A DNA stretch of 44,196 bases from a virus. Its lineage: Duplodnaviria > Heunggongvirae > Uroviricota > Caudoviricetes. This document shows positions 5,892-6,549 of this stretch, piece by piece (position 1 is the stretch's first letter; every line of letters starts with the position of its first letter). Below the pieces are notes generated by a model, which was not told where the DNA came from, made no database searches, and saw only the letters and a program-made list of their open reading frames with translations. The position numbers and the translations under genes are program-made. Location: positions 1 through 44,196 of IMG/VR virus record IMGVR_UViG_2778261274_000007. One strand, given 5' to 3'.

Positions 5892-6326
5892 ATGTCCGGT
5901 AATATCTATACGCTGTACAAATCCCACTGTGAAAATGTTGGAAAGTATCGGGGCATTGAAATCAGTGGGGTAGTGTCATCAGTCGAAATAAGCAAAGTTG
6001 AATCAAGGGCAACATTACTTACTCTTTTGGACCTTGTCTTACATGAGCACCGGAAGAAATTCGGCACTCCCTATAATCAGTTGAATGGGAAAAAGGCTCT
6101 GGTTCACCTTATTCTGATGAAGCATCACTGGATGCCAAAACAGATTAATGAGATGAAATTTGATGAACTTCTTCTTTCAATTCAGGATGAACTCACACTT
6201 GATAAAATAAGCGTAACCGCCCAGAAATTTTTAGATTATCGAGACTGGAGATCACAAATTCATCACTTTGATGATTTTGACGAAAATGAATGGGATCCTA
6301 ATTTGTCTGCACAATATCTAAAGTAA
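5892..6326 (+). CDS. Hypothetical protein (144 aa), AT-rich moron in the lysogeny-expressed position
   Basis: ORF with AAGGA RBS 8 nt upstream; opposite strand to the early-left operon; no recognisable family. Confidence 0.5.
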   Translation: MSGNIYTLYKSHCENVGKYRGIEISGVVSSVEISKVESRATLLTLLDLVLHEHRKKFGTPYNQLNGKKALVHLILMKHHWMPKQINEMKFDELLLSIQDELTLDKISVTAQKFLDYRDWRSQIHHFDDFDENEWDPNLSAQYLK

Positions 6327-6504
6327 CATCCTGTGATAAAACCGTGATTTCCTGATCCAGTTTTTTTAAGGAGTCTATTGTTTCCTGTCGATAAGACAGC
6401 ACTTCACGAAGCTGGTTTATAGCTGCCAGCTTCTTTGTCATCCACTCATAAATTTCCTCATCTGTGTAGCCAGGCGCGACGATTTTGGGTTCTGTTTTGT
6501 GCAT
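6298..6504 (-). CDS. Hypothetical small protein (68 aa), first ORF downstream of PL
   Basis: ATG at 6504 preceded by GAGGAG; the ORF track's TTG start at 6519 is less likely; not Arg-rich. Confidence 0.4.
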   Translation of the reverse strand: MHKTEPKIVAPGYTDEEIYEWMTKKLAAINQLREVLSYRQETIDSLKKLDQEITVLSQDVTLDIVQTN

Positions 6505-6549
6505 TTCACATCTCCTCAAGTTATCAGTTACTTGTTGATGGGGACCAGA

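Follow-up and report, generated by a model that had tools for sequence, protein, structure and literature searches.

What do two small genes that run head-on into each other beside a phage repressor gene contribute to the life of the phage? This question is raised by a 44,196-nt stretch of DNA, referred to here as the window, which comprises positions 1 to 44,196 of the IMG/VR record IMGVR_UViG_2778261274_000007 (Caudoviricetes). Close to cI, a gene for a protein of 144 amino acids (aa) on the plus strand (5892..6326) converges on a gene for a 68-aa protein on the minus strand (6298..6504). An initial annotation, made without database searches, had assigned this pair to the rexAB-equivalent position and had given it the logic of a defence moron. 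Comparison with diverged homologues supports another description, in which the 144-aa gene and its YdfC-like partner are a conserved, functionally linked two-gene unit. The pair would then represent a mobile, excludon-like module of temperate enterobacterial phages.

Both genes are real and belong to catalogued families

The two convergent open reading frames (ORFs) were confirmed with their ribosome-binding sites. A Shine-Dalgarno sequence, AAGGA, lies 6 nt ahead of the ATG of the 144-aa gene. The 68-aa ORF is preceded by GAGGAG and starts from the ATG at 6504; the coordinate 6298 includes its stop codon, and the 73-aa form that had been listed begins at a TTG at 6519. It is the first ORF downstream of a PL-like promoter on the minus strand (6672..6699). 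The AT-richness of the pair was also borne out: the window as a whole has 49.9% GC, the 144-aa gene 37.9% and the 68-aa gene 40.6%. In comparisons with diverged homologues, non-synonymous differences are far fewer than synonymous differences in both genes (pN << pS). The two ORFs are therefore real genes, and this pattern of substitution shows purifying selection on both.

Neither protein had been thought to resemble a recognised family. The profile and structure searches that were proposed at the time, and have now been run, place both in catalogued families of unknown function (NF033230/phrog_5286 and phrog_1744) and gave no defence, toxin or solved-fold match. The 144-aa protein, a phage-associated protein of the ECs1072 family, scored 157.8 bits against the NCBIfam model NF033230 (cutoff 70), with residues 4-144 aligned to profile positions 2-142, and was assigned to phrog_5286 with an E value of 1.5e-90. 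It is 100% identical to SfIV_36 (ORF-36) of Shigella phage SfIV, which was described by the authors of that genome as unique and of unknown function and proposed as a virulence candidate (PMC3851460). A HMMER scan of 1.84 billion representatives resolved the family into 76 clusters at 50% identity, nearly all of them single-domain proteins of 145-155 aa in which L50, R54, L64, H72, W80 and W134 are near-invariant.

The AlphaFold2 (AF2) model of the 144-aa protein is all-alpha, with a predicted local distance difference test score (pLDDT) of 84 and a predicted template modelling score (pTM) of 0.83. A pI of 6.4 and a highest 19-residue hydropathy of 0.84 predict a soluble protein without a transmembrane segment. 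No match to this protein was found in Pfam, in PADLOC or, by sequence profile, in the PDB, and a Foldseek comparison of its fold with the PDB and BFVD returned nothing at E <= 0.001. The top Foldseek match was the HEPN toxin HepT, an identity we rejected given an E value of 1.4 and a probability of 0.10; the HEPN reading was further ruled out by the family, which has no Rx4-6H motif at the right spacing. In PADLOC-DB 2.0, no defence family was matched by the 144-aa or the 68-aa protein at E values up to 1.

The 68-aa protein shares 39-41% identity with YdfC-family genes over 97% of its length (tblastn, E 2e-9) and belongs to phrog_1744 (E 6e-35). A profile built on the partner proteins matches YdfC of PhiR42_1 (E 6e-19) and of PPompW (E 2e-18). 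The AF2 model, for which the protein was folded alone since its database alignment consists mostly of frameshift variants, shows one long helix at residues 15-67 (pLDDT 90). The protein is acidic, and its highest 19-residue hydropathy of 0.29 gives no transmembrane segment. Its promoter-proximal place in the leftward operon is also the place of YdfC in DicA-type phages; YdfC of Qin is the promoter-proximal gene of the dicBF operon and has no known function (PMC5069750).

By their coordinates, the convergent coding regions have 29 nt in common at the 3' ends (6298..6326). Homologous pairs retain such an overlap, which measures 47-50 nt in L009/L011, 71 nt in ST64B and ~95 nt in a Klebsiella phage. 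Inside the 68-aa gene, a 9-bp hairpin on the plus strand (6408..6433; -15.6 kcal/mol, z -4.3) is a possible, putative early stop for the 144-aa transcript.

Pairing and polarity are conserved in three lytic operons

Among 5426 complete E. coli genomes, the 144-aa gene is found in 418 and the 68-aa gene in 411, and 406 carry both. These copies are nearly identical, and diverged relatives weigh more as evidence. The convergent, 3'-overlapping pair is retained in 54 of the 58 loci anchored on the conserved leader described below, a YdfC-like partner is retained in 81/84 Klebsiella-type loci, and every diverged representative keeps the pair, down to about 25-35% identity. The partner departs from this pattern at L008, which has no YdfC-like gene, and at L013, where its C-terminus is frameshifted.

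The genomic settings of these homologues differ. At 51-72% identity, 144-aa homologues (L009, L011, L013, L107) converge on a YdfC-like gene beside cI-like repressors of differing types, and homologues of ~37% identity (L047/L219, L221, L218) also face a convergent, overlapping YdfC-like partner. In Salmonella phage ST64B and in Klebsiella phages, where identity has dropped to ~30%, Sb50 or its homologue is the convergent partner of a 144-aa ORF that had gone unannotated; the pair sits there between the Q antiterminator and holin genes, and the 144-aa ORF opposes the late operon. In O157:H7 Sakai (Sp4), the name-giving ECs1072 lies between a cII-like gene and the replication gene O, where it opposes PR and converges on an ORF bearing the YdfC N-terminal motif. 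In all three lytic operons, at the PL-proximal site, in the cII-O interval of PR and between Q and holin, the polarity is constant: the YdfC-like gene points along the operon and the 144-aa gene against it. We found no description of this paired, polarity-fixed architecture, or of the inverted-repeat-flanked cargo slot described below, in the literature searched.

Dependence within the pair is asymmetric. YdfC-like genes exist alone, as in Qin-type prophages, whereas the 144-aa gene is almost never found without a YdfC-like partner. Among loci without the 144-aa gene, a YdfC-like gene is present in only 1/70. Counter-oriented ORFs annotated after ydfC in PhiR42_1 look spurious and match neither family.

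Two of the diverged loci have features of their own. At L013 (Escherichia albertii; 1070-1312, minus strand), the 144-aa allele is just 72% identical, and the partner matches that of the window at 98% over its first 48 residues but has an out-of-frame C-terminus, a combination that points to a recombination junction within the partner gene. At L218 (1350-2905, plus strand), two same-strand ORFs ahead of the ECs1072 homologue resemble a split KAP-family P-loop NTPase (PF07693, E 6.8e-6), with additional weak matches to PtuA-type ATPases.

The pair occupies a cargo slot beside cI

Between the window, SfIV and several E. coli phages, sequence identity in the region is 98-100%, and its immunity region is shared with SfV and with the e14 prophage of E. 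coli K-12. When near-identical phages are compared, relatives diverge exactly between ~5822/5885 and ~6536/6593. Between flanks that are identical, the cassette differs in SfV, e14 and other prophages, a comparison that shows the slot to be a cassette site.

Plus-strand cargo in this slot follows a conserved leader. In the window, the leader (5830..5860, plus strand) consists of the block TATTCCCCAACAACAAGGATTCGGTTA and a -10-like hexamer, TAATCT (5855-5860), and is a candidate promoter/operator for the cargo. The core, TATTCCYCWACWACAAGGAKTNGGYTA, is invariant among plus-strand-cargo cassettes even where the flanks have diverged. The hexamer varies as TAnnnT, with TATAAT at L004, TATTAT at L005 and TACTCT at L008 and L011. 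Reading it as a -10 element suits all variants better than a leader RNA hairpin (GGAUU...AAUCU), which we dropped after finding it disrupted in L005 and L011. The leader pattern occurs in more than 120 viral contigs or loci of an IMG/VR scan with the core and in ~1000 E. coli genomes.

Within and beyond the leader lie the two direct repeats, GTTAT(T)CCCCAACAAC, that had been noticed just upstream of the 144-aa gene (5828..5876, plus strand), with copies GTTATTCCCCAACAAC at 5828-5843 and GTTATCCCCAACAAC at 5862-5876. Each copy is followed by AAGGA, the second of which is the Shine-Dalgarno sequence of the 144-aa gene, and the diverged L008 leader has the same two-unit layout. An exact 11-mer, TCCCCAACAAC, occurs at 5833 and 5866, with a third, inverted copy carrying one mismatch at 6534-6544 (minus strand); three matches were found against 0.9 expected, and 5/100 shuffles reached three. 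The two ACAAGGA motifs may be CsrA sites.

The slot also contains the terminator that had been attributed to the 144-aa gene. This plus-strand intrinsic terminator (6563..6588) consists of a stem at 6563-6582 followed by a T6 run. Its folding energy is -12.1 kcal/mol when the plus strand is folded and just -7.5 for the minus strand; it is therefore built to stop rightward transcription and not transcription from PL. Five cargo classes share this terminator, with a variable loop, and in two of those classes it stands 7-40 nt past the stop codon.

At least nine unrelated families of plus-strand cargo follow the leader core in the more than 120 IMG/VR loci. They include the ECs1072 family, a coiled-coil protein with a zinc ribbon, a protein with two transmembrane segments, a secreted LprI-like protein, a 78-aa protein with its own convergent partner, and several others. 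A YdfC-like gene accompanies only the ECs1072 cargo. Compared with PADLOC, the other cargo classes gave no match save the weak P-loop matches at L218. Where the two-transmembrane protein is the cargo (L004 and L005, 1640-1740), it is preceded by a conserved proline-rich small ORF of 27-29 aa (MYVDSNEKFHVPVNQRPAPIPEPKPEM / MDLCVDKYEERHVPLRQKPPVPPKPPKEN) that begins at the position equivalent to the start of the 144-aa gene.

The 78-aa cargo belongs to a second, unrelated convergent pair, seen at L018 (78 aa on the plus strand, 108 aa on the minus strand) and L137 (2242-2860). It is located in the SfIV-type slot and after ydfC in PPompW (Qin-type) phages, and combines a counter-oriented protein of ~78 aa ending in ...IKDLWD with a partner of 108-135 aa that is read in the direction of PL. 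Along with ymfI/ymfJ of e14, it shows that convergent pairs recur at the slot site.

The cassette is bracketed by inverted repeats, with a left arm, AATCTGGTTATCCCCAACAA, at 5856..5875 and a right arm, TTGTTGATGGGGACCAGATT, at 6532..6551, the latter within the 68-aa gene's leader. From one cassette class to another the two arms co-vary (for example, GGATGACT/AGTCATCC and GTAACCCTC/GAGGGTTAC), and cassettes bracketed in this manner were also seen at L005, L021, L038, L055 and L107. Candidate roles for the arms are a long-range RNA stem in the transcript from PL or that of the cargo, an RNase III site and a recombination boundary. An invertible segment was ruled out, as 54/54 complete ECs1072 cassettes share one orientation. 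We also rejected the idea that the repeats are part of the mobile pair: none surround it in the Q-holin or Sakai contexts, and they thus belong to the slot.

A structured RNA lies downstream of the pair

In the PL transcript, the pair is followed by a structured RNA that is divergent from the 144-aa gene. The match to STnc100 (5558..5781, minus strand) scored 43.4 bits with RF02076 (gathering score 47, E 2.3e-7). The surrounding interval, 5440-5790 on the minus strand, is strongly structured (minimum free energy -152.7 kcal/mol, z -7.5) and comprises, in order, the STnc100-like multi-branch domain, a 13-bp hairpin followed by CCUUUUU, with a weak match to DicF, and a perfect hairpin of ~25 bp. 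This arrangement, pair and then structured RNA, mirrors the ydfC-dicF order of Qin.

STnc100 matches of 65-108 bits were also observed near the pair between Q and holin in Klebsiella phages (L015 2028-2223, minus strand; L139; L210; L214). These strong matches suggest that in those phages a lytic operon may give rise to STnc100 as a short leader or as a terminated transcript. Its distance to the pair is variable there, and tRNAs sometimes intervene.

In the window, the 5' part of the STnc100-like RNA gene (5745-5762) and the cargo leader (5834-5851) form a direct repeat of 78%. The small RNA (sRNA) would consequently be complementary to the leader, including a perfect 8-nt stretch, AAGGAUUC, which would matter only if the cargo mRNA starts upstream of 5834. 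Two SfIV annotations cross this structured RNA and overlap the start of the 144-aa gene: SfIV_34 (226 aa; window 5061-5741, minus strand) and SfIV_35 (114 aa; 5629-5973, plus strand). Both are probably over-extended or spurious, and the real gene is likely the 122-aa ORF at 5061-5429, a member of phrog_204.

A proposed role for the pair and its alternatives

From this gene order we infer a course of events that follows the state of PL. While cI holds PL off, the 144-aa gene would be read rightward from the conserved leader, with the candidate -10 element at 5855-5860, and the transcript would stop at the hairpin at 6408-6433 or at the terminator at 6563-6588. The 144-aa protein would act in the lysogen, and its most plausible task would be to ward off incoming phages or to hold back lytic development. 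Once PL is derepressed, the leftward transcript would yield the 68-aa protein first and then run antisense through the whole 144-aa gene, whose expression would be shut off by collision of transcription and by sense-antisense pairing. The 68-aa protein would counteract leftover 144-aa protein, so that the phage's own lytic cycle would go unharmed.

We put the probability of this explanation, in which the 144-aa gene is a lysogen-phase accessory or effector gene and a lytic-operon partner shuts it off and probably also neutralises its product, at roughly 40%. It is proposed chiefly because of the asymmetric dependence of the two genes and their fixed polarity across three operons. Published expression data bear on it in part. 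ECs1072 was measurable by microarray in uninduced Sakai cultures and dropped 4-fold on entry into stationary phase (PMC2241611). In e14, whose repressor and PL are those of the window, the first PL gene of the sister cassette, ymfJ, rises late in SOS by a log2 of 4.0-4.8 (16- to 28-fold), as does the PR gene ymfM (PMC11002266), and ymfI-ymfJ was scored as a convergent excludon from RNA-seq (PMC12288877). Two observations weigh against the proposal. Expression of ymfI goes up slightly in SOS, contrary to simple silencing (PMC11002266), and in our sigma-70 scan no promoter for the 144-aa gene passed, its -35 element being weak.

Other explanations would account for parts of the same evidence. 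The 144-aa protein might be a host-acting lysogenic-conversion or fitness factor, with an unrelated YdfC-like gene that co-travels by tight 3' linkage. The slot does hold cargo that looks host-directed, such as the secreted LprI-like and membrane proteins, ORF-36 was proposed as a virulence candidate (PMC3851460), and ECs1072 expression varies with growth phase (PMC2241611). We nonetheless regard this explanation as unlikely: linkage alone explains neither the retention of the pair at 25-35% identity across three operons with fixed polarity nor the other slot cargo that has no partner. The roles could also be reversed, with the YdfC-like protein as an active, possibly harmful early lytic factor and the 144-aa gene as a shield of the lysogen from leaky PL, through the 144-aa protein, the antisense transcript or both. 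Such a reversal also fits the conserved convergent architecture and polarity, YdfC heads the toxic dicBF operon (PMC5069750), and antisense transcription over the whole 68-aa gene to 6563-6588 is geometrically possible. It appears less probable still, as YdfC-family genes of the Qin type, which have no 144-aa partner, do not need the 144-aa gene, and toxicity of YdfC is unreported in the literature searched.

Alternatively, the module might act mainly in cis on the lytic operon, which it would brake or insulate by convergent transcription, thereby stabilising lysogeny and setting timing, with the proteins being secondary. The module always stands head-on in a lytic operon just past its promoter, ymfI-ymfJ provides an excludon precedent (PMC12288877), and the cassette is bracketed by co-varying inverted repeats. 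However, both proteins are under purifying selection, the fold of the 144-aa protein is confident and conserved, and other slot cargo would yield the same cis effect without a partner gene, making a purely cis-acting role quite improbable. Least probable of all is a toxin-antitoxin or addiction pair that stabilises the prophage. Two small, tightly linked genes with asymmetric dependence would suit such a system, but they are convergent and not co-transcribed and would be expressed out of phase, no toxin-antitoxin family was matched in Pfam or PADLOC, and the best Foldseek match, HepT, is insignificant (E 1.4, probability 0.10).

Comparison with known systems

The likeness to rexAB that prompted the first description of the locus is limited. 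In lambda, the interval from cI to PL is occupied by rexAB, which is transcribed from PRM along with cI. The 144-aa gene likewise adjoins the immunity region and might plausibly serve in the lysogen, but its place is past PL, within the PL operon and on the antisense strand. The PL-like promoter itself was correctly identified as opposing the 144-aa gene (TTGACA-16-CATAAT, 11/12 matches). Neither protein matched RexA or RexB in Pfam, PADLOC, NCBIfam or PHROG, no likeness of fold was found, and neither has a transmembrane segment, whereas RexB is a multi-pass membrane protein. With the wrong position, the wrong strand and no homology, the pair is, on comparison of sequences, not rexAB.

The broader suggestion of a defence moron fared better in part. 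Morons of lambdoid phages include lambda bor/lom and HK97 gp15. As in those cases, the 144-aa gene is an additional gene, AT-rich and equipped with a terminator of its own and a candidate promoter, it is present in some and absent from other near-identical phages, and its slot holds many alternative cargo genes. The accessory cassette, the cargo slot and the polarity in three operons all agree with moron logic; the defence component found no Rex or PADLOC match. The pair differs from these morons in having a dedicated opposite-strand partner that belongs to the lytic operon and a slot bracketed by co-varying inverted repeats.

An excludon shares with the pair the convergent genes, the overlapping 3' ends and the placement of one gene under a strong, switchable promoter. 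Here the coding overlap of 29 nt, known from coordinates, is complemented by a plus-strand terminator that lies beyond the whole 68-aa gene. Unlike an excludon, the pair is mobile and conserved across three phage operons. We suggest that it works like a moron combined with an excludon. Type II toxin-antitoxin systems are co-transcribed bicistronic operons, unlike this convergent pair. The Qin dicBF operon (ydfA-ydfB-ydfC-dicF-dicB) resembles the locus in having a YdfC homologue in a promoter-proximal place in a repressor-controlled leftward operon and a structured sRNA region downstream, which here is STnc100-like with a weak DicF-like 3' hairpin. It differs in that, in Qin, ydfC and the sRNA are not separated by an antisense gene of the ECs1072 family.

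Prophage defence genes with built-in self-immunity are exemplified by sieB-esc of P22 and lambda and by BstA-aba. The proposed logic of the pair is similar, with an effector in the lysogen and an element that spares the phage's own lytic cycle. There is no homology to these systems, and self-immunity here would follow from gene polarity and co-occurrence.

Surrounding features of the window

To the right of the pair, the PL-like promoter comes directly after the cI terminator, which was located by the promoter/terminator scan on the minus strand (6727..6708). The repressor gene itself (6739..7413, minus strand), labelled cI in SfIV and ymfK in E. coli, encodes a LexA-family repressor of the YmfK/CohE type (Peptidase_S24, E 1.5e-26). 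It is followed on the plus strand by cro (7504-7704) and by a cII gene of the CP76 type (7736-8299). Farther away, a tRNA gene (1369-1441, plus strand) adjoins the integrase gene (1459-2622, minus strand) and is probably the attachment site. Near the tail-fibre end, the plus strand at 35696-35885 has a weak IS009-like RNA match (50 bits against a gathering score of 117).

Significance

The ECs1072 and YdfC families were already catalogued; what is new here, on the evidence of conserved gene order, is that the two genes form a conserved unit. The cassette is present in ~7.7% of complete E. coli genomes, and the conserved leader in roughly one fifth or more. More generally, the two families might constitute a portable prophage switch, in which a lysogeny-phase effector, either a defence factor or a lytic brake, is matched by a cognate antidote made as the first product of whichever lytic operon contains the module. 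We consider this generalisation a speculative one and, taken as a whole, unlikely. If it is true, the widespread YdfC family, including YdfC of K-12, would consist of early anti-effector or escape proteins, and lysogen-expressed genes of this kind would have a dedicated cassette site in the slot that inverted repeats flank next to cI. The effector-partner pair of fixed polarity thus provides a concrete, testable hypothesis for two families of unknown function, K-12 YdfC among them, and the cargo slot beside cI is a place to seek further lysogen-expressed genes, possibly including new defence or conversion factors.
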